DNA of 64,000 nucleotides from Mytilus galloprovincialis (Eukaryota). Positions 31,570 to 64,000 of the stretch are shown here, one piece after another. A program made the translations under genes and the position numbers. Numbering within the stretch: position 1 is the stretch's first letter; each line of letters begins with the position of its first letter. The stretch covers positions 74,653,723 through 74,717,722 of the forward strand of contig NC_134841.1 in NCBI RefSeq assembly GCF_965363235.1. Reading direction: 5' to 3'. Below the pieces are notes generated by a model. It saw only the letters and a program-made list of their open reading frames with translations. It made no database searches and was not told the origin of the DNA.

Positions 31570-32253
31570 GTAAATATGATATGCTCTTTATAGGAGTAGC
31601 TGCTATGACGTTTTAGTTTAAAATTGTACTACTGAAGCACATATTAGCTATTACTAGTTGTTAGCTATATATTTACAGTTGATTTTGTAGTGGGTGAGTA
31701 TCTTTTGCTTGTTTGTTGACTATTGAAAAGTGTAAAATCAGACCTGAAGAATGACTATTTTCAATTTAAAAGAATATATTTATGCAAGAAATAAGTTATG
31801 GATAAACGTCAATTAGCACATAAGACAACAATTTTCCCTCAAATTTGTTGTCAATTATAATTTATATACATGTATAATATTTGTACAGGAACAGGAGGAT
31901 CTATAGGTATATGTATGCCTATAAGCATTACGCATTAATAGGTCAATTTCTGCTACCATTAATTTAGGCTAGTGTTAAAATCGTTGATATTTTACTGTTT
32001 ATTCTTCAAAATCTCCTTATCATTATTCATCAGCGAGGGTAAATCTGTGTCCCATTGACACATTCTCCATTTATTTATTTATGGTACAACATCAATATGA
32101 AAACCATGGCATGTCTTTCACGCCAGGAGCAGTAGTTTTTTTGCTATAACTGTAAACCAGGCAATACATGTTTCTCGGGTAACAGTTATATTAAAAAACA
32201 GAACAAATATTAATAGAACATTATTTGTAAATTTTCTGTTTCAGAAATAGAAA

Positions 32254-32368
32254 ATGTTGTCAACTGACAGAAACAAACTCCTAATGGGAGACAACAAGTC
32301 TATGTTATCAGCTAATTCATCATTAATGTCGAAATGGTCTCTAAAGACAGAATTGACATCACAAACTG
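32254..32368 (+). CDS. TEP1: TEP1 (telomerase-associated / vault protein 1) coding exon 1, ATG at 32254
   Basis: MLSTDRNKLLMGDNKSMLSANSSLMSKWSLKTELTSQT. In-frame TAG 6 nt upstream. Donor G|gtatgt. Phase-compatible with the next exon. Confidence 0.6.
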
Positions 32369-33236
32369 GTATGTTTTTATTTTACAATAAAAATTTAAGT
32401 AGCATGAATTATCCTTTAAGAATGTTTTGATGATTAAAAGGAGATGTGAGATAAAAGTCAATAATACAGAAACCTGCCAACACAAAAACTCAGTAAGATA
32501 CATAGATGTCAACACACTGTCACTAGTCTAGTGTTTATACATTGTTTCTTTGAGCTATGAATTGAACAGTAAAGAGTCTAGAAAGCATTTTGCATTTCAA
32601 ACTAAGAATAACCAAGAACTCAAAATTTTCTAGCACACAATGACAAGATCATTAAAATTTAATTGAAGGCAACCAATTACAGTTGTGACAATGTTCCTAA
32701 TTTTGTGCACATGTATTATTATAAAGATAATGTTTTTCTGTAAATTTGAATATAATTATTAAAAATTATGTTACATTGATAATGTGATGACAGAGAACAG
32801 GTCTTGTATCCAGGGAACTCCAAATGCTTACTTTTTGAAATGTTTGATGGTAAAAAAAAAGTTTTAGTGTTGAAACTCAAATTTGTATGTAAATCTCTCA
32901 TCTCTAACATAAAAAAAAATCAGGAAATATCTGTCATATGTATGTAGCTGACAGAATTTCAGAAGAACAACACTAAAAAGATCTTAATAGAAAAAAAGGT
33001 TATTGGGATGACATAAAATTAGAACAAGCACACCAAAAATAAAGTCAAAGTAACAGCTCTTTTATTGCTGTTCTTCAACTCAAGAGTTATAATTAAATGT
33101 TACTGTTGATTAGAAAGTTAAGATATTTCAGTGTGTTCTGGTCATGAATACAAGGAGTAAATAACTTATATAACACTTTTCTGTGTAAATGTAAACAACA
33201 TAGCTTTTTATAGTAAACTGATACCTCTTTTTTCAG

Positions 33237-33982
33237 GTTTAGGCCTAACAGCAGGATTGGTAAAAATGGAGAAGCCATCTTCTGTGACAACATCAGGAAG
33301 AAGCAGGCTTGACCAAACTTCTTCAAACATTGGCAGAAATACTACATCTTCAGCGTTACACAATACATTACTTGGACCAACAAAGTCAAGTTTTTCATTG
33401 TCAGGAACCCCAGGATTGACATCAAATTTGACCAGCAATTTGACCACATCATCCAATTTGTCCAGTAGACTTGGTCTGTCATCGGGTTTAAGTAGCAGAC
33501 TTGGACCATCGTCTAATTTAACAAGCAGTCTTCTGACAAAGCCTGACCAATCAAAACTTAGCTCATTAAGAAGCAATGATACTAGATCTGAGCAAACTTC
33601 CTCCATGTTTAGGGAAAATTTACAATCTAATTTACTGAAGTCGACCTCACCTCTTGTCACGATAAAAATAGAACCAGTCACATCCTTTAGTTCTAGCAGT
33701 TACTCAACTCAAAGTACATTATCAAGGCAATTGAGCTCAGATAAAAAGGAGACAACCAAAAGAAAGAGTAATGATCGGGCTGCAATCAAATCAAGAAAGA
33801 AGATGGTGAATAGTGATGGGAAAGTTACTACAATTACTAGATATGAAGTCAAACCACCGCAGTATAAATTAGAAATAGACATTAAAGACAAAGGAATAGA
33901 TATACCAGACTTTGTATCACCAGCGCAGGATCCAAGTTTGAAACCTATTTCTAAACCATTACATGATGTGAATGGGATAAAG
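33237..33982 (+). CDS. TEP1: TEP1 coding exon 2: long Ser/Thr-rich, internally repetitive exon
   Basis: Open frame of 248 codons (...LTSNLTSNLTTSSNLSSRLGLSSGLSSRLGPSSNLTSSLL...), matching ORF 33257..34042. Acceptor ttttcag, donor AAG|gtatta. Human TEP1 has repeats in the analogous position. Confidence 0.7.
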
Positions 33983-34408
33983 GTATTAATTTCTCCACAA
34001 TATCTGGTGTTGAAATCAGACATATTTTGGCATTTGCCATAAGGGATCATTCAAATTATCATCCACTGGCCCTTTTTTAAATGTTTAAGGATTCTACACA
34101 CGTCAGGTTGAGTTGGTTGATACTGACTTTTATCTTTCTTAACATCTATGACAGACAATTTTAAAGTTGCAAACTTGCAACTCAATCACTTAAGTATGGT
34201 TGTTCCAATTAAATGAATCCTGTTAAAGTTATTTGCCTGAAAAATGAACTGTTCATTCAGCAAATTGGTTTTGTAAAAATTTTTGCTACAAACACTAACT
34301 ATAAATTGAAAAGAAAAATATAAGTAATTCTATTATTCTTAAGCTTGTGTTTTTTATGTGACGAAAAAAGTCATTGCTCAACATGCATGTTTAATTTTAT
34401 TATTTAAG

Positions 34409-34543
34409 CTTGGTTTCATCAATGCTGTTAGTGGATCACTTATTTGCCAACCAGATTTTAGAAATTCAGTAGACAATACTAGAATAACACTATCAAACAT
34501 GGCAAAGAAGTTGGTTGTTTATGATCCAGAGTTTGTATTGAAG
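34409..34543 (+). CDS. TEP1: TEP1 coding exon 3 (start of TROVE region)
   Basis: LGFINAVSGSLICQPDFRNSVDNTRITLSNMAKKLVVYDPEFVLK aligns with human LSLLCSTLVSEVNMNNTSDPTLAAIFEICRELALLEPEFILK. Confidence 0.8.
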
Positions 34544-34810
34544 GTAAGTTCATATTTGACATTTTTTATCCTGCACAGAGCCTCAATGGGGGATATTGCT
34601 GTAAGGCATTGATTGTGCTTAGTCCATCTGTCTGTCGAGTATGCTTTTTATGATAATTTTTTTTAAAAACCAACAGAATTTTAATGGTGGTTTATGATGA
34701 TACAAATTTGTAAATCTTGAAAGAATGTTTAGATGAAAACATCTTTTTTAGCCTAGCCAAAACTGTTGCTTAAATTTATTTGATTATTTTTATTTGTACA
34801 TTTGTTGTAG

Positions 34811-34972
34811 GTTGCACTTTATACCAGAAAGCAACTTAACATAAGAACAACAGCAAACTTTCTGTTAGCCATGGCAGCTAATATTGATTTGTGCAGACCG
34901 TTCTTAAAGAAATACTACTGTGCCTCTATAAGTTTACCATCAGACTGGATAGAAGTAGCCGAAATATATCAG
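34811..34972 (+). CDS. TEP1: TEP1 coding exon 4 (TROVE domain)
   Basis: VALYTRKQLNIRTTANFLLAMAANIDLCRPFLKKYYCASISLPSDWIEVAEIYQ aligns with human ASLYARQQLNVRNVANNILAIAAFLPACRPHLRRYFCAIVQLPSDWIQVAELYQ. Confidence 0.9.
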
Positions 34973-35824
34973 GTTAGTTCTGGTATGGTTACCAAAGGGA
35001 GATAATTTAGTTTGTGAATGTAGGGTAATTGTCATGATTGAAAAATTGTGGATGTTATGCCAAAAAAAAACTTTGCCAATTTGTCATACACCTTCTTTTT
35101 CCCACCTGAATTTGCCACTGAATTCTTTATTTTAAAGAATTAGAAGAAAGGTTTTCGAAAAGAAAAAAATATCAATTAAAGAAAAGACTTATTATAACAA
35201 TAAGAATGGTATAATTGCCAATGAGACAACTCTCCACAAGATAGAAGATGACACCAAAATTAACAACTATGCATGAAATAAAATTGAGAATGGAATGGTG
35301 AATGTGTCGAAGAGACAACAACCCGACTAAAGAGCAAAAAAACGGCTGAAGGCCACCAATGGTTCTTCAACACAGCCAGAAAAGTTTTTTTTATGAAATT
35401 GAACTGATGTCTGAATATTCAGTAAATCATAACAATAAAGAATGTACAAATCTTCAGTTTTATCTGTATTTTGGAAATTATATTATATATAGTTGTGATA
35501 TACATTTGTAACATGTATAGTAAAACATGTACGCTGATGTTTTAATTCAAACATTAAATATTAACTGTGTATAAATATAGATTCTACTACTGCATCAAGT
35601 GTGATACAATATTTATCCATTCAAGACAGTTAAATTTTCAAATTTGAAACACCATTTTGATCAAGAAATAACTGAGATCAAACAAGTCACTTGTGATTAA
35701 ATCAAAATAATCAACAAGTCATGAAAGGGATAAAATGAGTAAGAATTAGAGAAACTGTCTTATCATATTTCAGTTTCACAGTGTGCAGGTTTTAACATAA
35801 ATGTATTGTGTTTTATCTCTTCAG

Positions 35825-35921
35825 GCTTTCCATGACAGACATTTGACACAAGGGGCGTTACCCTCAGCGTTAAGAAGAGTTATGATGACTAAATTTCCTG
35901 ACTTTGATGAATACCAGCTTG
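35825..35921 (+). CDS. TEP1: TEP1 coding exon 5
   Basis: AFHDRHLTQGALPSALRRVMMTKFPDFDEYQL aligns with human SLAEGDKNKLVPLPACLRTAMTDKFAQFDEYQL. Confidence 0.85.
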
Positions 35922-36999
35922 GTAAGAAAAACATTTTGCTTTTGATATCTGTTACATTTTCAGAGCATTTATGTTTAAACTCAAAAGGCAATAGAAGGCC
36001 ATTTCAGTGACTGCCTTTTATTTTGTGTGACTGTAAAAATGTCACATGTATGTCACATGTATGCTAAACTGGTTTGATTGATAGATTATTGGTGTTTTAA
36101 CTTTACTTTTAACTGCAGCCACTTTTGGCCAATTTCATGGTGGCAAGTTTTAATTGGTGGAGGAAACAGATTCCCCGGCTTTGATAGGAAAATACACTGG
36201 TCGGAACATTTGAAAATTGAAACTACAAATGTATTTGTATAAACTATCTATTTCTGATGGTTGAAAATTGGGTAAAAGGGGAGATAATTATATTTTGACA
36301 GAGAAAATTGCTATATATAGGTAGACAGAGGGGCTTCCATATTCATGCTGGATAGTGTCTGATCTGGAGATAAAAGCATCCAAGTTACTTAAGTACAATT
36401 AACAGAAGGAAAACTTCTATTGCTGTAAATAGTTCAATGGTACTTCTACTGGTACTAGAAATATGTGCTATTTATTCCATTATTACTAATTAATAAAGGA
36501 ATAAGACTTTATTTTACGAAAACAGATATTTTTTTAGTATTCAAGATATATATACAGGGTTAGATACTTGATGTCTTACTTACTTATGCTCTGTTGTATT
36601 TCTTCAAATTTTCTGTATTTATGTGCTTTGGAATGTGGGGGAAAAGGGGGGGGGGGGCTACTTCTGTCTAGTTATTCTGTTGAATTACATTAAGTTTATA
36701 AAGTTCTATAAAATTATTTATTATATACTTAGTAGTAAATACAGATAAATTGTATGTGTAATACAATCATTTGCAAGCGTGCTGTATCAGTCACCCGTGA
36801 TGATATCGATATCAGCACGGTTGCAAAAGCTTTATCACACCTTTAATCTGTATGATGTCACGTCATAGATTGCATCATTGCAGTCACTGTTGCAAAGGCT
36901 TTCAAATCCCTAATCTGTATGACAGCATGTCAAACCTATAATCTGTATGACGTCATGTTACATAAAAACATCTACTTGAGGTATATGTATATAATAAAG

Positions 37000-37135: not shown

Positions 37136-37258
37136 TATTCTCTATGTATAAATTTCACAATACTCAATATAAGGATTTTGACAAATATTCATGCCTTAAC
37201 TTCTAAAAAAGTGCATGGAGCATTTCGAGAATGATTTATTTCTTAATTTTACTTGCAG

Positions 37259-37566
37259 CCAAGTATAATAAAGAAAGTTCTAGGAAGAAGAAAAAGAAGA
37301 AGGATAGACAAAAGAAGGAGAATGAAGGTGATGGATCAGCTGTAATAGGAGGTATGGTTGGCAGAGGAGGTTTGTTTGGCAGAGGAGGTTTGATTGGCAG
37401 AGGAGGTAGAGGTCGTGGTAGAGGTAATGCACCTAGAGGAGGTTTTAGTAGAGGAGGTAGGGGAGCTAGATTTGGCAGTTTTTTACCCCCACAACCAAAT
37501 GACAGCTCATCAGATTCTTCGGATTCTTCGGATGAGGAAGAAGAAGAATCCAAGATGAAAAGACAG
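37259..37566 (+). CDS. TEP1: TEP1 coding exon 6: basic stretch, RGG/GAR-rich stretch, then an acidic Ser-rich stretch
   Basis: (A)KYNKESSRKKKKKKDRQKKENEG...GMVGRGGLFGRGGLIGRGGRGRGRGNAPRGGFSRGGRGARFG...DSSSDSSDSSDEEEEESKMKRQ. The start aligns with human AKYNPRKHRAKRHPRR. The RGG block has no human counterpart. Confidence 0.75.
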
Positions 37567-37844: not shown

Positions 37845-38640
37845 AATGTTGTCCGTGCATTAACTCATGAACCATTAAACCAAAGCTTTTAAAATTTTAA
37901 TATGTTATTACTGACAACTATACGAAGGTCAAGTTCAATAATGGCGATTTTGACTTTTACCGTTCAGGAGTTATGGTTCTTGAAAGATTGGAAAATGGAG
38001 TTGTCCGTGCATTTACGCATGAACTGTTCTACCAAAGCTTCCCAAATTTTAATATGTTGTTACTAATGAAAGAATGGAGGTCAAGTTCAATAATGACGAA
38101 TTTGACTTTTACCGTTCAGGAGTTATGGTTCTTGAAAGATTGAAAAATGGAGTTTCCAGTCGTGTCCGTGCATTTATGCATGAACTGTTCTACCAAAGCT
38201 TCCAAAATTTTAATATGCTGTTACTGATGACAAAATGGAGGTCAAGTTCAATAATGACGATTTTGACTTTTACCGTTCAGGAGTTATGGTTCTTGAAAGA
38301 TTGAAAAATGGTTTTTCCCGTCGTGTCCGTGCATTTTCTCATGAACCATTCAACCAAAGCTTTTGAAATTTTAATATGTTGTTACTGATGACAAAATAGA
38401 GGTCAAGTTCAATAATGACGATTTTGACTTTTACCGTTCAGGAGTTATGGTTCTTGAAAGATCGTAAAATGGCGTTTCCATTCAGGTTGTTGCATTTACT
38501 CATGAACCATTCAATCTAAGCTTTTCAAATTTTAATATGTTGATACTGATGACAAAATGGAGGTCAAATTTGATATTGACGATTTTCACTTTCACCATTC
38601 ATCAGTAATGGTTCTTGTGATATAGCCAGGACACAAATAA
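37845..38640. repeat. Satellite-like tandem array, ~160-bp unit × about 5, preceded by (GGGC)n, in the TEP1 intron
   Basis: The unit gtccgtgcatt...catgaac.gttctaccaaagctt.c.aaattttaatatg.tgttactgatgacaaaatggaggtcaagttcaataatgacga.tttgacttttaccgttcaggagttatggttcttgaaagattg recurs at about 37851, 37997, 38164, 38324 and 38496. Confidence 0.75.
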
Positions 38641-39200: not shown

Positions 39201-39334
39201 ATATCAGATGTTATTTACGATGATAAAGAATCGAAAGAAGAGATTGAGAAGACGTCTTTTTCTCTGAAACAGCTGATTAGAAAACTACATATCACAGAGC
39301 CAGTGTACCATGTCATGGCTCTTATTGGTAAAAA
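39201..39334 (+). CDS. TEP1: TEP1 coding exon 7
   Basis: ISDVIYDDKESKEEIEKTSFSLKQLIRKLHITEPVYHVMALIGK aligns with human FTLKKLVQRLHIHKPAQHVQALLGYR. Confidence 0.8.
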
Positions 39335-39927: not shown

Positions 39928-40085
39928 GTATCCAGAGACATTAGAAGATTTTTACAAGTGTCGTCTTCCAGGACAATGGGAAGAAGAAAAGGCGGGAAAA
40001 AGAATGAAATTACCTGTCCCTGAGACTTGGGAAACTCAGGTTTCTCTTAAAGGAAACAAAGCATCAACATGGGAAGACTTAATAG
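39928..40085 (+). CDS. TEP1: TEP1 coding exon 8
   Basis: YPETLEDFYKCRLPGQWEEEKAGKRMKLPVPETWETQVSLKGNKASTWEDLI aligns with human YPSNLQLFSRSRLPGPWDSSRAGKRMKLSRPETWERELSLRGNKASVWEELI. Confidence 0.9.
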
Positions 40086-40713: not shown

Positions 40714-40823
40714 ACCATAAAAAGTTGCCTTTTATGGCAATGTTGAGGAATCTGAGAAATTTGATAAAAGCTGGCATCTCCAACAAACACCACACAGATA
40801 TTATCAATAGACTTACTAATGAG
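40714..40823 (+). CDS. TEP1: TEP1 coding exon 9
   Basis: DHKKLPFMAMLRNLRNLIKAGISNKHHTDIINRLTNE aligns with human ENGKLPFMAMLRNLCNLLRVGISSRHHELILQRLQHA. Confidence 0.9.
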
Positions 40824-41589: not shown

Positions 41590-41680
41590 AGACAAGTTGT
41601 CAACAGTAAACAGTTCCCATTCAGATTTTTCTCTGCATATGAAGTTTTGGTTAACCTTGAGAAAGACTTTGAGGAAAGTC
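41590..41680 (+). CDS. TEP1: TEP1 coding exon 10
   Basis: RQVVNSKQFPFRFFSAYEVLVNLEKDFEES aligns with human KSVIHSRQFPFRFLNAHDAIDALEAQLRNQ. Confidence 0.85.
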
Positions 41681-41955: not shown

Positions 41956-42157
41956 AAAAAAAGATTGTACAGGAGGCAGAGATTGCAGCCCAGTATGCAG
42001 CATTAGGAATTCCTCAACCAAGTGAACGAGCAAGAGGTCGTGGACGTGGTAGAGGGAGAGGTAGAGGTAGAGGACGAGGAGGAGGAGGGGCAGATGGAGA
42101 AGTACAGTGGTGGATAGAAAAGAGAAACAAAAAGAAAGCTGAAGCAGGAAAAGCAAA
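41956..42157 (+). CDS. TEP1: TEP1 coding exon 11, containing an (RG)n-rich tract; 3' boundary uncertain
   Basis: (Q)KKIVQEAEIAAQYAALGIPQPSERARGRGRGRGRGRGRGRGGGGADGEVQWWIEKRNKKKAEAGKAK. The donor GCAAA|gtatga at 42158 is chosen because it keeps phase and makes KAK+3aa+YD match human KAR-QWK-YD. The frame stays open to 42224, and a stronger-looking gtaaag donor at 42224 gives an in-frame stop with the next exon. Confidence 0.55.
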
Positions 42158-42889
42158 GTATGATAATATTAACACTGTCACATGTTTGCCATCGAAATGC
42201 AAAAAATATCTTCTTGGATTATGGTAAAGCTTTAAGGTTTTGTTTGCTATGAGTTAAGTGTTTGTCTCTGATATTTTCTTTTCTTTGTTGAATTTGTATA
42301 CAACTTGTATGGACATTGAGTGATTTAAAGAGCTTATCAAGTGGTGTGGTAACTTACCCTTTGTTTAAGATTGTATGGTGTCGTCTAGATTTTTAATTTT
42401 CTTAATTTGTGTTGTTTGGTTGCTGTCTCATAATGTTTACTTCACAGCAAGGATCCAGAATTTTTTTTTATCTAATTTCGGTCATTTTCATATAATTTAA
42501 ATGCTGACCTGCCCTTTTCAAAAAAGGATTGTCAAAATCTCATAACTGCAAGAGTATGCTCATACTCGTAGCATCATCAAACTTGTTTCACTGTTGCATC
42601 TATAGCATTTACTTCACGTTTTATCCTTCCATTTTCCTAAAAATCGATCAAGAGCATTTAAGGGAAGGCAACAGCTTAAAAATAATATGATTTTAATGAC
42701 CCAAAATAATAATTTTCTAAGCTCCTATTATTTATATAAACATTTATCTGTCATCTATAATTGAACCCATATTTCATAATTACAGCCAAATGACTTGAGT
42801 ATGTAGGTTAACAAAAAAAATCTTGCTTGTTAGCTGAACAGTTAAATCAATATTAGGTTAGGTATACTATTGCTGTTGTCTGTTCTATG

Positions 42890-42950
42890 GTAGGGTTGTT
42901 GTCTCTTTGACACATTCCCCATTTCTATTCTCAATTTTATCCATCTTTCA
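42890..42950 (+). repeat. Partial SINE-like repeat copy (same family as 366-600 and 50738-50880)
   Basis: gggttgttgtctctttgacacattccccatttctattctcaattttatcc. Confidence 0.35.
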
Positions 42951-43221
42951 GAGAATTCTAGTCCTACTGACAGATATTGGTTATCTGTCAGACTAGATGA
43001 CTCTATAAAGACAGAAGTATACCTAACCTTATAATGATTTCATGGTTCAGCTATCTAGAAAGGTAACCAAAGATTTTGTTTGAACCTACAAACTCAAGGC
43101 ATTTGGCTGTATTTATCATTTTATGGTCTCATTACCAATTGTTGTCAAGGAAAAAGCTAAATTTTATTGAAATCTGACTGCAATGCCTTCTGCAATCATT
43201 GTAAATCATATTATATTTCAG

Positions 43222-43402
43222 AGAGACTCCTTATGATCCAAATCTGATACAGAGATACAGAAAAGCCTTAGATACAGCTGTTAAAATAGCAACAGTATAC
43301 AATGTCCAGCCAATCAAAGGAAAGACAATCGTTTTCTGTGATGTTGGAGAGAATATGGATGTTAATTGTACAGCTGCTAGGGGTCTTGGAAAACCCAGAA
43401 AG
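43222..43402 (+). CDS. TEP1: TEP1 coding exon 12
   Basis: ETPYDPNLIQRYRKALDTAVKIATVYNVQPIKGKTIVFCDVGENMDVNCTAARGLGKPRK aligns with human KYDGEMLNRYRQALETAVNLSVKHSLPLLPGRTVLVYLTDANADRLCPKSNPQG. Confidence 0.85.
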
Positions 43403-44115: not shown

Positions 44116-44262
44116 ATGAGAGAAGTAGCTGTGTTGATGGGTTTGATGTGTAAATACTCATGTGAGAACTGTGAATTTGTTGTATTTGATGAGTCCCGTT
44201 ACGACCTGGTCACACCAAAACCTGGAACAATTCTGAATAACATGGAAGATACGCTTACTGTT
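44116..44262 (+). CDS. TEP1: TEP1 coding exon 13
   Basis: MREVAVLMGLMCKYSCENCEFVVFDESRYDLVTPKPGTILNNMEDTLTV aligns with human LNYALLLIGMMITRAEQVDVVLCGGDTLKTAVLKAEEGILKTAIKL. Matches ORF 44116..44298. Confidence 0.8.
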
Positions 44263-44918: not shown

Positions 44919-45005
44919 TTGGATAAACAAATGCAGACCGGCAAGAACTTTGAATACAAAATTCCAGATTGTATATTAAATGCTGCTTTGGTGGATAGAC
45001 AACAG
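44919..45005 (+). CDS. TEP1: TEP1 coding exon 14
   Basis: LDKQMQTGKNFEYKIPDCILNAALVDRQQ; acceptor tattttag, donor CAG|gtttga. Aligns with human ...TFGKYLLSLAGQRVPVDRVILLGQ. Confidence 0.7.
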
Positions 45006-45393: not shown

Positions 45394-45533
45394 ATTGATA
45401 ACTTGATAATTCTGAGTGGTGGAGTTGACAGTGTACAGCAGGACTTTGTCTCCTTCTTCTTGAAGAAGTTTAGACAACTGGTAAACCCTAATCTGTTATA
45501 TGCCAATATTTCATTCAGTGGAAAAGGTTGTGG
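45394..45533 (+). CDS. TEP1: TEP1 coding exon 15
   Basis: IDNLIILSGGVDSVQQDFVSFFLKKFRQLVNPNLLYANISFSGKGC aligns with human VDRVILLGQSMDDGMINVAKQLYWQRVNSKCLFVGILL. The donor GG|gtatgt at 45534 is the one that restores phase to the next exon. Confidence 0.7.
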
Positions 45534-45978: not shown

Positions 45979-46050
45979 ATTTTCTGAGAGTATCAAACCA
46001 GAGAATGATAATGACATCTATATCACAGGATTTAGTGATGCTATACTGAG
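45979..46050 (+). CDS. TEP1: TEP1 coding exon 16
   Basis: (G)FSESIKPENDNDIYITGFSDAIL(R) aligns with human STDLNPNDVTLSGCTDAILK. Confidence 0.7.
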
Positions 46051-46334: not shown

Positions 46335-46493
46335 ATTCATTGCTGAGAGAGGTGATGGAGGACAACTTATGCATGTTGATAAGATAGATGAATTCTTCAA
46401 ACTGAAACCTATGCCAATACTACAAGATGTCTCAAGACCAGCAAGGTCTGTTCCTGTTGAGAGACCACTGGCAATACCATGCAACACACCATG
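46335..46493 (+). CDS. TEP1: TEP1 coding exon 17
   Basis: (R)FIAERGDGGQLMHVDKIDEFFKLKPMPILQDVSRPARSVPVERPLAIPCNTP aligns with human KFIAEHGASHLLEHVGQMDKIFKIPPPPGKTGVQSLRPLEEDTPSPLAPVSQQ. Confidence 0.85.
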
Positions 46494-46703: not shown

Positions 46704-46880
46704 CTGGAGAACCTTCAGAGTTTTTATATCATCAACATTTCGAGATATGCATGGAGAGAGAGATGTTTTAACAAGATATGTCTTCCCAGAGTTACGTGCC
46801 CTTGGAAAGAAACATTTTATAAATGTTTATGAAGTTGATTTGAGGTGGGGAGTAACAGAAGAAGAGACAAAACATCATAA
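46704..46880 (+). CDS. TEP1: TEP1 coding exon 18 (DUF4062-type region)
   Basis: [58 protein letters not shown] aligns with human [58 protein letters not shown]. Confidence 0.95.
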
Positions 46881-47169: not shown

Positions 47170-47412
47170 AACATTGGAGTTATGCTTATCAGAAGTTTCC
47201 AAATGCCAGTATTTTATTGGAATCCTAGGGGAACGATATGGGTATATGCCTGATAAATACACAGTTCCAGATACACCTGAATATGACTGGGTGAAACATT
47301 ACCCTCAAGGGGCCTCAGTGACAGAATTAGAAATGCATTTAGGAGTGTTGATGCATCCTGCACAGAAACAGGACAAAGCTGTGATGATGATCAGGAACAA
47401 TAATTTTATTAA
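47170..47412 (+). CDS. TEP1: TEP1 coding exon 19
   Basis: TLELCLSEVSKCQYFIGILGERYGYMPDKYTVPDTPEYDWVKHYPQGASVTELEMH...VMMIRNNNFI aligns with human [58 protein letters not shown]...ALIYFRDSSFL. Confidence 0.95.
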
Positions 47413-50737: not shown

Positions 50738-50880
50738 GGGCCAGCTGAAGGACGCCTCCGGGTGCGGGAATTTCTCGCTACATTGAAGACCTGTTGGTGA
50801 CCTTCTGCTGTTGTTTTTTTATTTGGTCGGGTTGTTGTCTCTTTGACACATTCCCCATTTCCATTCTCAATTTTATTCAA
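50738..50880 (+). mobile_element. SINE-like repeat copy in the TEP1 intron (same family as 366-600)
   Basis: gaaggacgcctccgggtgcgggaatttctcgctacattgaagac...ggtcgggttgttgtctctttgacacattccccatttccattctcaatttta. Confidence 0.4.
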
Positions 50881-51363: not shown

Positions 51364-51477
51364 AGATGTACCAAAAGAATTCCTATCTGATTTTGTAGCA
51401 GAAAATCCAGAAGCTGAAAGCAAGATGGCTACCCTAAAGAATAGGGTCAAGAATTCACCTCTAGAAGTTATTGAAGG
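51364..51477 (+). CDS. TEP1: TEP1 coding exon 20
   Basis: (K)DVPKEFLSDFVAENPEAESKMATLKNRVKNSPLEVIEG aligns with human [39 protein letters not shown]. Confidence 0.85.
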
Positions 51478-52132: not shown

Positions 52133-52253
52133 GTACGATTGTAGATGGGGAGGATCTGTTGATGGGAAGCCCATTGTTTCAGGACTAGAGAAGTTTGCCA
52201 TGCCAATCATTAACTCTGTGTGGAATTCTGCCAGGAAGCAATGCCCAGATGAG
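52133..52253 (+). CDS. TEP1: TEP1 coding exon 21
   Basis: (G)YDCRWGGSVDGKPIVSGLEKFAMPIINSVWNSARKQCPDE aligns with human [39 protein letters not shown]. Confidence 0.85.
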
Positions 52254-53632
52254 GTTAGACAACTCTTGCAAAAAAATAAAGTTAAACAAGGTCATTCAAC
52301 ACCAAATGAAGGACTGAGCAAGAAGAAGCCCACAAAACCAGGGGTATCTTAGGTACTCTGCAAAGATTAGCAGATACTGCTCCACATGTGACACCCATCA
52401 TGTAACTGTGGGGCCTCAGGGACTGGTGGTCTAAGTAGTAACTACTTTTATCACTAGCCAGTCAACATTGATGTTGTGAGTTCCAATACTTCTCGTACGG
52501 GTGCACTCGACTCCAATCTTAATTTACTAGAATTTATGAGCATTATGTTTTCTGGTCTGTGCGTCCATTCGTTTTCTAAGTCTGTCTGTTCTGCTTCAGG
52601 TTAAAGTTTTTGTTCAAGGTAGTTTTTGATGAAGTAGAAGTTTAATCAACTTGAAACTTAGAACCTATGTCCCCTATGATATGATCTTTCTAATTTTAAT
52701 GCCAAATTAGAGTATTTACCCCATTTTCATGGTCCACTGAACATAGAAAATGATAGTGCGGATGGGGCAACCTTGTACTATGGACATTTCTTGTTCTATC
52801 AAAGGTCTGTGATTTTCTCAGGGCAGTCCAGATTCCTCCACCAATAAAAACTGGCAGCCATGAAATACCCCAAAAGCGGTGCTGAAATGTGGCGTTCAAA
52901 CATTAAAATCAAATCAAAATCAAATCATGTAACTATAATGAAATATTTTTAAAACTTTACTAAACATTTAGAATGAATACAAAACCAGACAAATGAAAAA
53001 CTATGAACTGTAGGTTGCAGTCTAGTAATTGACTGCTCCTAAGGCTTACATGCAAAACAGTTGATCTTTGAAAATAAAAAAAAAAAAAAAAAAAATGCTA
53101 CATAGAAACAAAAATTCATGTTCATATCATGTTTGTACTAATGTGAAATTGTGATTCAATCGAAAAAAAAAGTGGGTCATGCCACGAAGAATATAAAGTT
53201 ATGTAACCCTGAAGTCAAAACATTTTTTTTTCTACTCTCTGTTTGCTGTATTTACTAGGCCGCACCACTTCCAGTAAACATGATATCCTTCCCCTTTCCT
53301 GAATTGATATCCCCAAAAAGATGCAAGATTTTTTTTAATCTATATATATGTTTCAATTCAGCATAAACTTTTAATCAAACAGAAAAAATTGAGTCTAGTA
53401 AAAAAAGCAGAAAAAATTGAGTTGTAATACAAACTGGTACCTGTATTTCAAAATGATCATGTTTAGTCTGTCAAACATTGAATATGTACACTTATTTATT
53501 AGAAACGGAAGTGATTTTACAATACAAATCTTAAATTTTATATATATAAAACCTGTGCACAACTTCATTTTTATATAATAGAGCGATAAAATACAATCAT
53601 TTAGCCAATCAAATTGCTGTCTTTTACTACAG

Positions 53633-53818
53633 GATGCCATGTTGGATGAAACAACCCATGCCACAAAACAACATGAGGCAATGGTAGAGAACCACAGAGC
53701 TAGATTTGTGGGGAGGAAAACTCTGATCAAAGAATGTCTCAAAAAAATGTCAGAAATGACATCTGGTGGAGTTATCTCCCTTACAGGAAAACCAGGCACA
53801 GGAAAATCAGCCCTTTTG
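53633..53818 (+). CDS. TEP1: TEP1 coding exon 22 (NACHT domain Walker A / P-loop)
   Basis: DAMLDETTHATKQHEAMVENHRARFVGRKTLIKECLKKMSEMTSGGVISLTGKPGTGKSALL aligns with human ...RLMLPHGRLSLVTGQSGQGKTAFL. Contains the GxxxxGK[ST] motif. Confidence 0.9.
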
Positions 53819-54342: not shown

Positions 54343-54518
54343 GCTTCACTGGTGACATCTTACAAAGACTCAAGCCAGTGTGATAGTCCAGCCAACATCT
54401 TGGTCCATATATCTGGAGCAGCCCCAGGGTCTACAAATATCCTGGCCACTCTAAGGAGACTGTGTTATGAGATAAGAAGACAATTTGGACTGACAACTGA
54501 TATTTCTGAAGATTATAA
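54343..54518 (+). CDS. TEP1: TEP1 coding exon 23 (NACHT)
   Basis: ASLVTSYKDSSQCDSPANILVHISGAAPGSTNILATLRRLCYEIRRQFGLTTDISEDY aligns with human ASLVSALQAPDGAKVAPLVFFHFSGARPDQGLALTLLRRLCTYLRGQLKEPGALPSTY. Confidence 0.9.
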
Positions 54519-56347: not shown

Positions 56348-56495
56348 AAACATAACACAGAAGTTTAGTGAGATGTTGACTGAAGCTGGATCTCTATCTG
56401 GTTCCCCAGTGGTCATATTCATGGATGGTTTAGACTTGATGGAGAACACACTTCTGCCCAGTACAATGGATTGGCTACCTAATCCTGTACCAAAG
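56348..56495 (+). CDS. TEP1: TEP1 coding exon 24 (NACHT Walker B region)
   Basis: (K)NITQKFSEMLTEAGSLSGSPVVIFMDGLDLMENTLLPSTMDWLPNPVPK aligns with human LQQRLLPKSAESLHPGQTQVLIIDGADRLVDQNGQLISDWIPKKLPR. Confidence 0.85.
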
Positions 56496-57167: not shown

Positions 57168-57344
57168 AATGTAATATTTGTGATAACTGCATTGGAGGAT
57201 GGAAAATTCAACAGTTCTCTGAAGAGACTTGGAGCTGTCAATTTAAGTGTAGGTCCATTAGACATGTGGGACAAAGCTGATGTTGTCAGGAACAACTTGG
57301 CAGTACACAGGAAGGCTTTAGATGAATCACCATTTAACAACCAG
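57168..57344 (+). CDS. TEP1: TEP1 coding exon 25
   Basis: NVIFVITALEDGKFNSSLKRLGAVNLSVGPLDMWDKADVVRNNLAVHRKALDESPFNNQ aligns with human CVHLVLSVSSDAGLGETLEQSQGAHVLALGPLEASARARLVREELALYGKRLEESPFNNQ. Confidence 0.9.
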
Positions 57345-57610: not shown

Positions 57611-57636
57611 CTGCGTCGTCGTCGTCCGAATACTTA
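57611..57636. repeat. (GTC)n microsatellite
   Basis: gcgtcgtcgtctgcgtcgtcgtcgtcc. Confidence 0.8.
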
Positions 57637-57640
57637 TAGT

Positions 57641-58265
57641 TTTCGCACTCTAACTTTAGTAAAAGTGAATAGAAATCTATGAAATTTTAACACAAGGTTT
57701 ATGACCACTAAAGGAAGGTTGGGATTGATTTTGGGAGTTTTGATCCCAACATTTTAGGAATTAGGGGCCAAAAAGGGCCCAAATAAGCATTTTCTTTGTT
57801 TTCGCACAATAACTTAAGTTTATGTGAATAGAAATCTATGAAATTTTGACACAAGGTTTATGACCACAAAAGGAAGGTTGGGATTGATTTTGGGAGTTTT
57901 GGTTCTAACACTTTAGGAATTAGGGGCCAAAAAAGGGCCCAAATAAGCATTATTCTTGGTTTTCGCACAATAACTTTAGTTGAAGTAAATAGAAATCAAT
58001 GAAATTTAAACACAAGGTTTATGACCACAAAAGGAAGGTTGGTATTGATTTTGGGAGTTGAGGTCTGAACAGTTTAGGAATTAGGGGCCAAAAAGGGGCC
58101 CAAGTAAGCATTATTCTTGGTTTTCGCACCATAACTTTAGTTTAAGTAAATAGAAATCTATGAAATTTAAACACAAGGTTTATGACCACTAAAGGAAAGT
58201 TGGGTTTGATTTTGGGAGTTTTGGTCCCAACAGTTTAGGAATAAGGGGCCCAAAGGGTCCAAAAT
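57641..58265. repeat. Tandem array, ~160-bp unit × about 4, in the TEP1 intron
   Basis: The unit ttttcgcacaataactt.agtt.a.gt.aatagaaatc.atgaaattt.aacacaaggtttatgaccac.aaaggaaggttggg.ttgattttgggagtt...ttaggaattaggggccaaaaagggcccaaataagcatt recurs at 57641, 57800, 57960 and 58121. Confidence 0.8.
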
Positions 58266-58530
58266 TGAACTTAGTTTGATTTCATCAAAAATTGAATAAT
58301 TGGGGTTCTTTGATATGCCAAATCTAACTGTGTATGTAGATTCTTAATTTTTGGTCCCGTTTTCAAATTGGTCTACATTAAGGTCCAAAGGGTCCAAAAT
58401 TAAACTTAGTTTGATTTTGACAAAAATTGAATCCTTGGGGTTCTTTGATATGCTGAATCTAAACATGTACTTAGATTTTTGATTATGGGCCCAGTTTTCA
58501 AGTTGGTTCAAATCAGGATCCAAAATTATT
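58255..58530. repeat. Two tandem copies of a ~135-bp unit
   Basis: ggtccaaaattgaacttagtttgattt.a.caaaaattgaat.attggggttctttgatatgc..aatctaa...gt...agatt.ttaatt.tgg.cc.gttttcaa.ttgg recurs with a period of ~135. Confidence 0.7.
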
Positions 58531-58539
58531 ATATTAAGT

Positions 58540-58787
58540 ATTGTGCAATAGCAAGAAATTTTCAATTGCACAGTATTCAGTAATAGCAAGAAATCTTCAA
58601 TTGCACAGTATTGTGCAATAGCAAGAAATTTTCAATTGCACAGCATTGTGCAATAGCAAGAAATCTTCAAATGCACTGTATTGTGCAATAGCAAATATTT
58701 TCAATTGCGCAGTATTGCACAATAGCAAGAAATATCTAATTGCACAATATTGTGCAATAGCAAGAAATTTTCAATTGATTGGAGTTA
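58540..58787. repeat. Tandem array of a ~36-bp partly palindromic unit × about 7 (satellite, not CRISPR)
   Basis: attgtgcaatagcaagaaat(t/c)ttcaattgcacagt is repeated back-to-back with no intervening unique spacers. Confidence 0.85.
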
Positions 58788-59501
58788 TCTTTCTTTGTCC
58801 AGAATAGTAGTTGAATCAACTTAAATCATTGTTTTATACAATATACAATGTATATTCACTTTTACTACCAACTGATAAATTAAAACAATCTTTACCATTC
58901 AGTGATAACAAGCACCTTTTGTTACATTTTAATATTTTATGATGTATTTAAATGAGTAGTTATTGTTGCAAACTCCATTAGAAATTTGAATTGAGATCAG
59001 TTTTGGAAAAAGGGAAAGGGGGATGTGAAAAAAAATGGGGGGGGGAGGGGGGGGTTGAATTTTTCTCATTTCAGATTTCATAAATAAAAAGAAAATTTCT
59101 TCAAACATTTTTTTGAGAGGATTAATATTCAACAGCATAGTGAATTGCTCAAAGGAAAAAAAAATATTTTAAGTTCATTAGACCACATTCATTCTGTGTC
59201 AGAAACCTATGCTGTGTCAACTATTTAATCACAATCCAAATTTAGAGCTGAATTCAGCTTGAATGTTGTGTTCATACTTGCCCCAACCGTTCAGGGTTCA
59301 ACCTCTGCGGTCATATAAAGCTGCGCCCTGCGGAGCATCTGGTTTATTCTGTGAATACACTTTTATTGTAATAAGAGTTTGTATACAATCCCATTTCAAT
59401 AAGATAAGAAGGAAGCTGTCATTTTGATACAAATTTGAATACATCTTAATTTAGTTTTAAATGAAATGAAATAATGTGTTTCTTTTTACTTTTTTCTTCA
59501 G

Positions 59502-59594
59502 ATGAAGTTATTGCTATCAAAGAGGGAAGGAGCAAATCCTCTTTTCTTGAAGCTTGCATGTGAAGAACTAAGAGTTTTTGGAGTGTTTGAAAGG
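59502..59594 (+). CDS. TEP1: TEP1 coding exon 26
   Basis: MKLLLSKREGANPLFLKLACEELRVFGVFER aligns with human MRLLLVKRESGRPLYLRLVTDHLRLFTLYEQ. Confidence 0.9.
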
Positions 59595-60270
59595 GTATGT
59601 TAAAATATAACTACTTTTAATTTAGAATTGTTGTGTGCATTTATTATTTATTGGAATTGAAGGAAATACTACATAGTTATGATTCTATCAAATTGTGTGC
59701 AAGATTGTATTTTAGAAAATCATCTTCTTGCAATTTTTGCAAAGATAAAAACATATAAAAAATTCTGAATTTACAGTACTTTTTTTGCCAGTTTGAATAA
59801 AGTACCAATTGGTTTACAGTATTGTAAATATGTATTTGTTGATCTGATAAGGACTGGCAAGAAACAGGGGTATTTTTGTTTGTGTATTTATGTCCAACAG
59901 TTTTTAAACTGCAAGCTTTCAGACTTTCTCATGTAAAAGAAGGGACATAGTTTATTTTTAAACTCTTTTAATAATTCATGACACGAAATCCTTGCATGAA
60001 CTCAACAAAGAAAAGAAATAGAGCTTGTAATAATATTCTCCATCTCAAAGACTGTTTTGATGAAATTATTTGCTAAAAGTAATATATGAATTTTTAACGG
60101 AGTGCATTACAACTGTGATAAATGTACAAACTGAAAGACTAAAGATTTCATTAGAACACAATAACATAAGAAAAGTTATTTCAAGTATAAATGTTTCATC
60201 ACGATAATGCTGGTTATCAAATATATTTAAAACTGTTTGAATTTGCTAACAGGTATATTTTTTTTACAGA

Positions 60271-60403
60271 TTACCAATAAACTGAAATCCTTACCACATA
60301 CCACTCCTACACTCTTACAAGAAGTACTCTCCAGAATAGAATCAGACTTAGGACTTGATCTGGTATCTACAGCATTCTCATTGTTAGTGTGTTCAAGAAA
60401 TGG
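60271..60403 (+). CDS. TEP1: TEP1 coding exon 27
   Basis: ITNKLKSLPHTTPTLLQEVLSRIESDLGLDLVSTAFSLLVCSRN aligns with human VSERLRTLPATVPLLLQHILSTLEKEHGPDVLPQALTALEVTRSG. Confidence 0.85.
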
Positions 60404-60684
60404 TAAGTTCTAAGAAAATTAGAAACCTTTGTTGTGTTCTAGAATGTTCAAAAGAACATTGATGTCAGTATTATATATAATGCATAAAGTTGAGTAGCAG
60501 GCTAGTCAAAAGTTGGATAAACAAAATGGTAATCACCTTATTTTGAAATATGAAACCAAATAAATACCCCTTATTACTGCTTCTGCAGAAAATCACAGAT
60601 CTCTTCCTTGAATTTGGACATCACAAAGCTTAGTTTTAAGAAGAGATGAGTATTCTGTATTTTCACATTTTTTTTGATTTTCAG

Positions 60685-60862
60685 GCATACAAGTGGAAGA
60701 ATTACATGACTTACTAAGTATTCATGATATCTTAACAAATGATAAACTCAAAATGGACGATATAAGAAACATTAAATTGACACCTGAACAGATGTTACCA
60801 GCTGCTGTGTTTGGGCACTTGAGGAGGTCCCTAGAGACATTCCTAAACCCAACTGATAGTTG
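60685..60862 (+). CDS. TEP1: TEP1 coding exon 28
   Basis: (G)IQVEELHDLLSIHDILTNDKLKMDDIRNIKLTPEQMLPAAVFGHLRRSLETFLNPTDS aligns with human LTVDQLHGVLSVWRTLPKGTKSWEEAVAAGNSGDPYPMGPFACLVQSLRSLLGEGP. Confidence 0.85.
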
Positions 60863-61300
60863 GTAAGTCTTCTATATTTTCATAAAAGTGTAACAGTCAA
60901 GACGATGAATTTCTATCCTTTTTCCACTCATTTATTCTCAGTAAAACCAAAAGTCATGAAATGTCAGTTACTTTTGAAATGAATATTTGATCTTTTGAAA
61001 GAGTGATAAATGTAAATATTCTCAAAATGTTCCTTGTTTATAGGATCACAAAATTTAACTAATCACCACATTTTTTCTAGTGATGAACAAACAACCCTTC
61101 TCTAGCCATCTGTTGAGCATGAAAAGCTTACCTTTTTGGAGTGCTTCATTTAACCACCATGTTTTTGTGTGTGCAGGATTTCTGTAGTGTTTTGAAGGCT
61201 GTGTTGTTTACATTGCCCTTTTTTATGTGCTGTCTGTCCATTATTTAAACTTAATATGTGATTTCCTCCTTAATATATTCTTATTTTTTTGTAATAACAG

Positions 61301-61407
61301 GAACAGTAGACTAACACTGGCTCATAAAGACATAGAGGCTGCAGTGAGACAGAGGTACATGAAGGGTTCTTCAGACTTGGAAACTAAATACCATTCTTTA
61401 CTGGCAG
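61301..61407 (+). CDS. TEP1: TEP1 coding exon 29
   Basis: (W)NSRLTLAHKDIEAAVRQRYMKGSSDLETKYHSLLA aligns with human ...LCLPDGPLRTAAKRCYGKRPGLEDTAHILIAAQL. Matches ORF 61227..61430. Confidence 0.8.
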
Positions 61408-61936
61408 GTAAGTTCATGAAAATGTTTTAATTATCATATATTAACCCTCTTAGTTACCCAGTCATTAAATATCTGTGAAACAAACCTGATATTTTACATA
61501 TATTCATGAATTATTATAAAGTGGGAAATTTTCATGAGGGTGTATTTTTGCTAACTTTCTGTTAAAAATGAAATAAGTAAATATTCCATCTTGTACATTT
61601 TATCTTGTAGGAGGATTACAATAAGGGACTAGAAACTTGAAAATTAGAAAATGGAACAAGAAACATGAAAATATAATCTCTAAAAAAGTTTTTTTTAACT
61701 CTTCTAACTTTTTGATAACTTTTTTAAACCTTTGAAGTTTTACGAGTAAACAGCTTTGTTGTTCAACACTACAGCTTTTGATTTGAATATGTTAAATGAA
61801 ATAAGTCACCTAATTAAAGTAGCTAAAGGTAAAGGAACAGAAATATTTACAGAAAAAACAACATGAAACATAACACTTGTTCTGGAAGTTGAGAAGTGAT
61901 GCATAGATGTTGATTTTTTATTTTTTATTTTGATAG

Positions 61937-62025
61937 GCTACTTTTTCCAACTTGCTGATCCAGGTAAAACCAATAGTTTCAGTGGAAATAATCCTAGAGC
62001 CTTTACAGAATTGCCATTCCATTTG
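61937..62025 (+). CDS. TEP1: TEP1 coding exon 30
   Basis: (G)YFFQLADPGKTNSFSGNNPRAFTELPFHL aligns with human ...GTFRSCPPEALGDLPYHLL. Acceptor tgatag, donor TTG|gtgagt. Confidence 0.8.
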
Positions 62026-62417
62026 GTGAGTGTGTATTTTATAGTGAATAAGTTTCAAAGAAACTAAAATTTTATACCTGCAGCAACAAAATTATGGGCT
62101 ATATTGCATTAACCTTGTCTGTTTGATTTTCCATCCGTTCATCTTAATCTTGAGAGGCAATGATAGATGGGCAATGGACCTACCTAGGAGTCCCCAGTGG
62201 TTAAGCCACATTAATTTGTTAGCATTTCACATAAGTTGGACAGATACTATTAATTGTTTTCCTATCCTTTAATTCTCAATATGTTGAATATACTAAAAAA
62301 ATATCTTCATACATTTCTAGATACTTTTGATCAGATTTTTATCGAGCTTTCGATTTAGTGGAAAAAGCGAGACTAAGCGATCCAACATTCCGTCGGCGTT
62401 GGAGGCGTCCACAAATA

Positions 62418-63125
62418 TTCACTCTGTGGTTGAAGTTTTTTAAATTTTGATAACTTTCTTAAACTATACTGGATTTCTACCAAACTTAGACAGAAGCTTG
62501 TTTATGATCATAAGATAGTATCCAGAAGTAAATTTTTTTTAAATAAAATTCCATTTTTTTCGTATTTTACTTATAGATGGACTTTTTCTGCGGGGAAACA
62601 TAAAATTCACTCTGTGGTTAAATTTTAAAAAATTTTAATGACTTTCTTATACTATTTTTAATTTGTACCAAAGTTGGACAGAAGCTTGTTTATGATCATA
62701 AGATAGTATCCAGAAATAAATTTTGTAAAAATATAAATCCCTTTTTTCCGTATATTACTTTTAAATGGACTTAGTTTTTCTGTCAGGAAACAACACATTC
62801 ACTCTGTGGTTAAATTTTTAAAATTTTGATGACTTTCTTATACTATTTTTAATTTGTACCAAACTTGGACAGAAGCTTGTGTATGATCAAAAGTTAGTAT
62901 CTAGAAGGAAATTTTGTTGATATTTTGTACCTGTGTATCTGTATTTTACTTATAAATAGACTTAGTTTTTCTTCCAGTTAACCTTACATACAGTCTGCAG
63001 TTAAATTTTTTTAAACCTTTTTTAGATTCATAAACTATCCTTGATTTTTACTAAACTTGGACATAAGCTTCTTACAATCAAAAGATAGTATCAAGAGGAA
63101 TATTTTTATTGATTTGTTTCCTCAT
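62418..63125. repeat. Tandem array, ~190-bp unit × about 3.7, in the TEP1 intron
   Basis: The unit ttcactctgtggtt.aa.ttttttaaattttgat.actttctta.actat....tt.taccaaa.ttggacagaagcttgtttatgatcataagatagtatccagaa.taaatttt recurs at 62418, 62607, 62797 and about 62990. Confidence 0.75.
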
Positions 63126-63579
63126 TTTTGTTGAGCCTGCCATTTACATCAAAGTTAGGCGAGACACTGGGTTCTGCAGAACCCTTACAATTTTGTTTTC
63201 ATTTTTGGTCAGCAGCTTGACCATGATTAGTTGTCAAATATGAGCAGAATTGCTAGTTACTTACTTTCTGTTTGCCATTAGTTTTAATTACGATTGTTGG
63301 CGCAGACTTAGAGCAACAACAAATGCATTCTTGTTTAATCCTGATCTGTTATTTAAAATCAAGATTTGCTGCTCATTCAAAAACTAAGATAACAATAAAT
63401 TTTCTTTACACATTAAAAGAAAACCTGTTTCAAAAAATGAGATCATTCTCTCGTTTTAGTCTGCCACAAGTCAAGAGAAATGAAAATTAGTATAACATTG
63501 GTCTAATATTATGATATATAAAAGGTTCTGTGTAACAGTATTTTGCTGAACTTGTAATAAAATGCTTCTTATATTATAG

Positions 63580-63694
63580 GTTTATTGTGGTGAATTTAAA
63601 GAGCTACAACGTTTACTTTGTAATTTGAATTTTATACATGCCAAATGTCAGCTAGGATTGGCCACACAGTTAATGGACGACTATCAAGATAAAG
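63580..63694 (+). CDS. TEP1: TEP1 coding exon 31 (last exon visible in the window)
   Basis: VYCGEFKELQRLLCNLNFIHAKCQLGLATQLMDDYQDK aligns with human LQSGNRGLLSKFLTNLHVVAAHLELGLVSRLLEAHALY. The donor AAAG|gtatag is at 63695, so the WD40-encoding remainder lies beyond 64000. Confidence 0.8.
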
Positions 63695-64000
63695 GTATAG
63701 AAATATACATGACCTGCTTGTATCCCTTCAAAAACTAATTATTCATTTATGAAGAAGAGAATATTTTTTACATTAAATCTGATCATAAAAGTAAACAAAG
63801 AAAACAGACATAAATAGGTCTCTAAACACAATAGTTCAAATGGGATTCTTTAACCAATCCTTTATCACCTAACTAAAAAATATCTAGTGTGAATTAGTGA
63901 ATAGTGATTATGATAGAGACTAATTATCCATGTAGGTTATGAGGCTAATTTACATTTGAACAGTTGATATCTTACTGTCCTGCATTAATTGTATTGATTG

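Follow-up and report, generated by a model that had tools for sequence, protein, structure and literature searches.

The closest described system to the gene analyzed here is mammalian TEP1 (telomerase protein component 1, vault protein p240), whose human form is UniProt entry Q99973. The gene lies on the + strand of a 64,000-nucleotide stretch of Mytilus galloprovincialis DNA (contig NC_134841.1, positions 74,653,723 to 74,717,722; hereafter the window, to which all coordinates refer). The DUF4062 domain of TEP1 has been described as a TIR-like NADase (Osinski et al., preprint, 10.64898/2026.05.01.722283). Full-length human TEP1 and the isolated domain (residues 886-1113) split NAD+ and NADP+ into nicotinamide and either ADP-ribose or its phosphate in a reaction that depends on E1008 and is lowered by R908A and R976A, and TEP1 is also active within reconstituted vaults (10.64898/2026.05.01.722283). 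The same authors proposed an APAF1-like switch, in which sensing by the WD40 part leads to NACHT oligomerization and switches on the TIR-like domain, and found full-length human NWD1, NWD2 and NPHP3 to be inactive on NAD+ in vitro (10.64898/2026.05.01.722283). E1008-dependent NADase activity of the human TEP1 domain was shown independently by Le Mouellic et al. (preprint, 10.64898/2026.09.04.749371), who found the NIR domain in 88% of metazoan genomes, so that its occurrence across Metazoa is already known.

Other described proteins share parts of this architecture. Ro60 (RO60/TROVE2) and bacterial Rsr have the TROVE and vWA-like modules, with presumed binding of small structured RNAs (Y RNA, vault RNA), but Ro60 ends after the vWA domain whereas the window gene goes on into NADase and NACHT modules. 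NWD1, NWD2, NPHP3 and the bacterial DUF4062/NIR defense proteins (Swarozyc, Avs-NIR, Vulcan and Vesta) share the TIR-like NADase fold, its catalytic Glu and its position on the N-terminal side of a STAND ATPase; unlike the window gene, they lack TROVE, and phage proteins act as the trigger for the bacterial ones. The order TROVE, vWA-like, DUF4062, NACHT is unique to TEP1 among the families compared (Ro60 and NWD1/NWD2/NPHP3). We assign the interval 32254-63694 to the 5' ~60-65% of an intact, protein-coding TEP1 orthologue, with a probability of about 0.92. The gene is a known one, this orthologue of it is ordinary, and mollusc TEP1 predictions are already present in public databases.

Gene model and homologues

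Between 32.2 and 63.7 kb, the + strand carries a run of open segments with TEP1-like translations. The window as a whole is AT-rich (~32% G+C), and long open stretches are therefore rare. A protein search with a rough concatenate of these segments returned 269 proteins at E <= 1e-10. The top-ranked named hits were almost all TEP1, TEP1-like or p80-like, the few others bearing uninformative labels, and the best hits included proteins of Elysia marginata (E 1e-279), Solemya velum (a hypothetical protein), Branchiostoma, Lingula, Octopus, Saccostrea ("p80-like") and many vertebrates. When 14 TEP1 homologues were compared to the window by tblastn, we obtained 187 high-scoring segment pairs (HSPs), all on the + strand, all within 32245-64000 and all collinear with the queries, versus 0 HSPs on a reversed-window control.

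Splice junctions were chosen from phase-compatible GT/AG pairs near each homologous core, ranked by splice consensus and by the fit of the junction peptide to 120 homologues; the splice sites of introns 9, 10 and 25 were set by reading the DNA directly. The first-pass annotation of the window had claimed at least 31 coding exons, about 1,700 amino acids (aa) and a reading phase kept at every junction, and all of this was recovered in the rebuilt model, which runs from an ATG at 32254 to 63694 and consists of 31 exons that sum to 5,101 nt and encode 1,700 aa, with zero in-frame stops (Table 1). All 30 introns are bounded by GT..AG, and they range from 210 to 3,951 bp in length. The coding share of the locus is 16%, with a G+C content of 39% in exons vs. 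30% in introns. Because stop codons are frequent at 32% G+C, an open frame that continues through 31 GT..AG exons counts in favor of the TEP1 reading.

An initial model of 30 exons lacked, between exons 13 and 14, a stretch of 26-31 aa common to 10 homologues. This alignment gap led to a micro-exon, exon 14 of the present model, which had been missed by tblastn and whose length agrees with that of the homologues at that point. No junction in the gene is less certain than its acceptor; position 44919 is preferred, with 44937 and 44946 as possible alternatives. Acceptor 44919 was chosen over 44937 for its proper polypyrimidine tract and because the exon then has the right length. Across the model, 27 of the 30 junctions were spanned by at least one homologous protein, often by dozens, without a gap and with a BLOSUM62 score of at least 20 over 13 residues. 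Junction 28/29 is backed instead by abutting HSPs (Lingula residues 770/771).

Further support came from a second species. A search with exon 2 identified metagenome contigs from another, moderately related species (54-59% protein identity), one of which (L002, 7.2 kb) carries exons 1-5 in the same order. DNA similarity between the window and this contig is confined to exons (33365-33984, 34399-34564, 34805-34978 and 35811-35927) and the introns do not align, while the ATG, the donor of exon 1, the acceptor of exon 2 and the three introns that follow occupy identical positions. The exon-2 acceptor was settled at 33237 because the contig has its acceptor at the equivalent position, which ruled out 33243, 33405 and 33414. 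Conservation restricted to exons in this manner is indicative of the pattern expected under purifying selection.

Overall identity of the 1,700-aa product was 60% to Saccostrea, 56% to Solemya, 55% to Lingula, 51% to Elysia, 42% to Octopus and 36% to gorilla, a pattern that fits a bivalve or a relative of the bivalves. No matching database entry exceeded ~60% identity overall, and the protein of this species itself was hence not among the hits. As no entry in the hit list was longer than ~1,600 aa, full-length TEP1 models may simply be absent from it. The Saccostrea cucullata protein ("telomerase component p80-like") and those of Solemya velum, Elysia marginata, Octopus sinensis and Lingula anatina have RGG/RG inserts, the N-terminal motif and junction spacing in common with the window gene. 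With mammalian TEP1 it shares the domain order, and ~1,300 aligned residues are collinear at 36% identity. Collinearity with human TEP1, also claimed in the first-pass annotation, was borne out by ape TEP1, which aligns in order through TROVE, DUF4062, NACHT and the ESPFNNQ region; aa 283-1372 of the Pan paniscus protein align in order through the first three of these.

As had been proposed from the first reading, the window does not contain the 3' end of the gene. The phase-1 end of exon 31 falls at a GT donor (63694), neither a homologous exon nor a tblastn HSP was found in 63695-64000, and the longer homologues whose alignment runs beyond the model (P0075, P0088 and P0099) bear WD40 repeats. 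On these grounds we conclude that the gene leaves the window, and we infer from the homologues that its WD40 repeats and stop codon would lie downstream.

Domain content and active-site residues

The spliced product contains, in order, a Ser/Leu-rich N-terminus, TROVE with two RG/RGG inserts, DUF5920, DUF4062, a NACHT-type STAND ATPase, a winged helix of the NWD1 type and the first part of an APAF1-like helical region. In Pfam searches, TROVE (PF05731) was found in two parts, divided by the RGG insert, with E 1.6e-105 and a score of 354 bits (cut-off 23), followed directly by the vWA-like DUF5920 (PF19334; aa 884-990, E 1.6e-9, 38.2 bits, cut-off 27). DUF4062 (PF13271; aa 1020-1113, E 3e-16, 59.8 bits, cut-off 24.7) sits between the vWA-like domain and the NTPase. 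The latter was matched above cut-off by three P-loop STAND models at aa ~1257-1390 (AAA_16, 34.1 vs. 32.6 bits; NPHP3_N, 28.1 vs. 24.8; AAA_22, 27.3 vs. 27), and both its Walker A (GKPGTGKS, aa 1285-1292) and Walker B (VVIFMDGLD, aa 1375-1383) motifs are intact. HTH_NWD1 matched at aa 1508-1623 (E 2.6e-8), and APAF1_C gave a weak match at the very end.

When the product was searched against PDB sequences, the best match was 11gz_A, a solved fragment of human TEP1 containing the TIR-like domain (E 2.1e-61 across the DUF4062 region), with 45% identity over the region equivalent to human residues 886-1113. Weak PDB matches to SmD1 and uS5 stem from the RG runs. We mapped the active-site residues by way of gorilla TEP1, in which the residues cited for human TEP1 have the same numbers. 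The catalytic Glu of the NADase is kept (human E1008 = E1128), and two active-site Arg residues are identical (R908 = R1028 and R976 = R1096). Besides the catalytic Glu and these two Arg, the mammalian and window proteins have Walker A, Walker B and the motif ESPFNNQM(K/R)LLL in common. In the window gene this motif, ESPFNNQ/MKLLLSKRE, spans the exon 25/26 junction; its gorilla counterpart is ESPFNNQMRLLLVKRE.

The N-terminus differs from that of vertebrate TEP1. It is Ser/Thr/Leu-rich, with an SKWSL motif conserved among molluscs, and a Pfam search of the spliced product gave no match to the 30-aa TEP1_N repeats (PF05386). Among the protein-search hits, PF05386 is listed for mammalian entries only, and we therefore regard these repeats as a vertebrate feature that does not define the family.

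A second difference from mammalian TEP1 lies within TROVE, to which exon 6 contributes a run rich in Lys as well as an RGG box (aa 453-491) and an acidic Ser/Glu run; an (RG)n run (aa 710-730) comes from exon 11. The exon 6-type segment, AKYNKESS...RGRGG...SDSDEE, is present in Saccostrea, Solemya and Elysia TEP1; both inserts occur in the oyster, Solemya and Elysia proteins, and amphioxus has the second one. At the insert points, ape TEP1 has Arg/Pro/His-rich basic segments. The inserts represent a lineage difference in low-complexity linkers that probably contact RNA, and not a new architecture, and they may give invertebrate TEP1 an extra surface for RNA binding or arginine methylation.

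The first-pass annotation had called the protein a vault/telomerase scaffold. Its identification as TEP1 stands, but "scaffold" is an outdated description of function given the 2026 preprints cited above, in which the human DUF4062 domain is an active TIR-like NADase. Extrapolating from mammalian TEP1, the TROVE module would bind small non-coding RNA (vault RNA) and place the protein inside the vault particle, and the NACHT and WD40 part would form an APAF1-like switch whose oligomerization activates the TIR-like domain. The retention of human-type NADase residues in a lophotrochozoan fits an ancient enzymatic function of this vault protein. Searches of the window with Rfam (at gathering thresholds) and ARAGORN found no vault RNA, Y RNA, intronic snoRNA, other Rfam family or tRNA.

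Adaptive immunity is missing in bivalves, whose sets of innate immune genes are much enlarged. We consider it doubtful, though compatible with the intact state of all catalytic and P-loop residues, that invertebrate TEP1, with two RG/RGG boxes in its TROVE ring, binds RNA in a way unlike the mammalian protein and acts in bivalves as an RNA-sensing, NAD+-depleting, NLR-like immune effector. TEP1 is an old and widely conserved metazoan gene, and the value of the present locus beyond correct annotation is small. It consists of a hand-checked exon model of an invertebrate TEP1, the retained NADase residues noted above and a record of RG/RGG inserts in TROVE, which mammals lack.

Strength of the TEP1 assignment

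Several points count against reading the locus as an intact and functioning TEP1 orthologue. The exact splice choices are predictions from sequence, weakest at the exon 14 acceptor and the homology-poor junction 28/29, and expression of the gene is likewise presumptive. Vault residence, vault RNA binding and NADase activity would be attributed to the window protein by homology with mammals. One of the three sulfate-coordinating Arg residues of human TEP1 (R954) is replaced by K1074, a conservative change. The Pfam NACHT model PF05729 scored below its gathering threshold in the spliced product (21.5 vs. 26.7 bits, E 2.2e-4). The HMMER check proposed with the first reading nevertheless supported it, with TROVE and DUF4062 well above their cut-offs, NACHT matched below its own, related STAND models above theirs and the Walker motifs intact. 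The sub-threshold match covers profile positions 2-162 of 167, and PF05729 is carried by many of the TEP1 homologues in the protein search; we read the domain as divergent rather than absent. Finally, the 3' third of the gene, beyond the window, could carry a disabling lesion, and a single 64-kb window cannot count gene copies or show one-to-one orthology.

The last of these points, together with the "TEP1-like" labels of several invertebrate hits and the presence of more than one amphioxus entry, speaks for a lineage-specific TEP1 paralogue, perhaps with a diverged role, in place of a single orthologue. We find this improbable, given that the complete TEP1-specific architecture and the catalytic residues are kept, that 51-60% identity to other mollusc TEP1 proteins is orthologue-like at such a distance, and that the second species has the same gene structure. 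Less probable still, the locus could be a pseudogene of the unprocessed kind, or a gene whose disabling lesion lies beyond the window; the intact 5' stretch would then reflect decay too recent to show, or the remnant of a truncated copy. Such a reading draws on the 3' third being out of view and on intactness having been judged from the nucleotide sequence; against it stand 5,101 nt without stops or frameshifts, 30 of 30 canonical introns, preserved functional motifs, and exon-confined conservation with another species, which indicates purifying selection.

Confusion with another TROVE or NIR-NACHT protein is effectively refuted by the domain order: TROVE is common to Ro60, and DUF4062, NACHT and HTH_NWD1 are common to NWD proteins, but published domain schemes include no Ro60 with DUF4062-NACHT and no NWD or NPHP3 protein with TROVE, TROVE-only PDB chains matched with E 1e-4 over ~80 residues vs. 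2e-61 for the human TEP1 domain, and the named best hits are almost all TEP1. Ro60/TROVE2 (TROVE and vWA only, ~540 aa) was rejected as a candidate on the grounds that the window gene runs >700 aa further into DUF4062 and NACHT, and NWD1/NWD2/NPHP3 (N-terminal DUF4062, no TROVE) on the grounds that ~1,000 aa, including TROVE, precede DUF4062 here.

Introns, repeats and the upstream region

The first-pass annotation attributed the length of TEP1 to introns packed with satellites and MITEs (miniature inverted-repeat transposable elements). Satellites and a MITE-like element are present, but "packed" is an overstatement. Sizeable tandem arrays occur in 3 of the 30 introns and, together with a few short arrays, account for 10.5% of intron bases as detected by TRF (Tandem Repeats Finder). 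All repeats detectable within the window amount to 17.1% of intron bases, a lower bound in that repeats were recognized by another copy within the window and not from a genome-wide library; no exon bases are repetitive. In 17 of the 30 introns no repeat was detectable, and a single MITE-like element with long inverted arms was found in the introns. The length of the gene is due mainly to many ordinary introns (median ~640 bp) and a handful of 1.3-4 kb.

Table 1. Exons of the TEP1 model and the larger intronic repeats, in window coordinates; a slash within letters marks a splice junction
Feature	Position	Strand	Content and support
Exon 1	32254-32368	+	ATG, aa 1-39, conserved SKWSL motif; L002: same ATG, peptide 68% identical, same donor position
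Exon 2	33237-33982	+	aa 39-287, Ser/Thr/Leu-rich N-terminal region; L002: 58% protein identity, identical acceptor position
Exon 3	34409-34543	+	TROVE start; L002 DNA conservation confined to 34399-34564
Exon 4	34811-34972	+	TROVE; 91% protein identity to L002
Exon 5	35825-35921	+	TROVE; homologue alignment and L002
Exon 6	37259-37566	+	Insert within TROVE: Lys-rich run, RGG box 37360-37476, acidic Ser/Glu run
Exon 7	39201-39334	+	TROVE; junction peptide RQ/ISDVIYD vs. oyster RQLSDVVYD
Exon 8	39928-40085	+	TROVE; junction spanned by 100 homologues
Exon 9	40714-40823	+	TROVE; donor GAG/GTATGT
Exon 10	41590-41680	+	TROVE; FPFRFFSAYE motif
Exon 11	41956-42157	+	Second RG-rich insert, RG run 42027-42089; RGRGRG...WWIEKK kept in oyster and Solemya proteins
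Exon 12	43222-43402	+	TROVE end and start of vWA-like region
Exon 13	44116-44262	+	Homologue alignment
Exon 14	44919-45005	+	29 aa (...IPDCILNAALVDRQQ); from alignment gap
Exon 15	45394-45533	+	DUF5920 / vWA-like
Exon 16	45979-46050	+	DUF5920
Exon 17	46335-46493	+	DUF5920 and linker
Exon 18	46704-46880	+	First half of DUF4062 / TIR-like NADase domain; R1028 at 46741-46743
Exon 19	47170-47412	+	DUF4062; R1096 at 47234-47236, catalytic Glu E1128 (GAA) at 47330-47332
Exon 20	51364-51477	+	C-terminal part of TIR-like domain
Exon 21	52133-52253	+	TIR-like domain end
Exon 22	53633-53818	+	NACHT start; Walker A GKPGTGKS at 53786-53809
Exon 23	54343-54518	+	NACHT
Exon 24	56348-56495	+	NACHT; Walker B VVIFMDGLD at 56409-56435
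Exon 25	57168-57344	+	NACHT; last residues ESPFNNQ
Exon 26	59502-59594	+	First residues MKLLLSKRE
Exon 27	60270-60402	+	Homologue alignment
Exon 28	60685-60862	+	NWD1-type winged helix
Exon 29	61301-61407	+	Winged helix; Lingula residues 770/771 abut at junction
Exon 30	61937-62025	+	Homologue alignment
Exon 31	63580-63694	+	APAF1-like helical domain start; phase 1 end, donor AAG/GTATAG
Satellite, intron 6	37850-38617		161 bp, 4.8 copies (TRF)
MITE-like element, intron 11	42776-43116		341 bp; two nested inverted-arm pairs (43 and 47 nt; 83-86% complementary), core in dispersed copies
Composite tandem block, intron 25	57639-58777		161 bp x3.8, 135 bp x1.9, 35 bp x6.9 (TRF)
Satellite, intron 30	62413-63096		~190 bp, 3.6 copies (TRF)

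The intron satellites at 37850-38617 and 57639-58254 have an equal 161-bp period and no cross-similarity by self-BLAST; this shared, nucleosome-sized period of the intron 6 and intron 25 arrays may or may not be a coincidence. A dispersed short repeat with the core GGTTGTTGTCTCTTTGACACATTCCCCATTTC(T/C)ATTCTCAATTTTAT occurs at 364-494, 35277-35382 (minus strand), 42880-42960 (inside the MITE-like element) and 50740-50877. A second dispersed repeat, with a unit of ~170-215 bp and 82-86% identity, lies at 8000-8249, 17622-18049 (tandem at 17668-17996) and 52532-52798 (TEP1 intron 21). A string search of the literature for the repeat cores gave no match.

In the related species, the intron between TEP1 exons 4 and 5 contains an open reading frame (ORF) with a weak match to a hAT transposase dimerization domain (L002 5136-5381 and L003 3153-3398). 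Intron 4 of the window does not align to this ORF-bearing intron, from which it follows that intron content turns over fast while exon positions are fixed.

Upstream of TEP1 and head-to-head with it, the minus strand carries a gene for MCMBP (MCM-binding protein) at 13126-22911, the two being separated by a repeat-rich spacer of ~9.5 kb. Pfam MCM_bind matches were found in open segments at 22314-22700 (E 5e-24), 16356-16742 (1e-8) and 13126-13350 (1e-24). A Logan contig from SRR29152237 matches 19790-22911 at 92-98% DNA identity and so stems from either a closely related organism or a diverged haplotype. Repeats of ~500 bp are arranged in tandem inside MCMBP (18073-19101), with another copy in the spacer to TEP1 (26559-27112), and an MCMBP intron contains a 147-bp satellite (20177-20818; 4.4 copies, 75% identity).

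Elsewhere in the window, 6526-7070 is a perfect tandem duplication of a 272-bp unit (100% identical), so young that an assembly artifact is another possibility. A 30-bp minisatellite at 11167-11467 (10 copies, 95% identity) is open in several frames, giving AELQRGICVL-type repeats, without evidence of coding. Two + strand ORFs are probable transposon relics: the tail of one, at 29919-30278, has a Cys/His motif resembling the zinc-binding end of a LINE (long interspersed nuclear element) reverse transcriptase (Pfam zf-RVT, E 0.06), and the other, at 4083-4445, encodes 121 aa (...YLDLHLEIDNEGRLKTKLYDKREDFSFPIVNFPF...) with no Pfam match.

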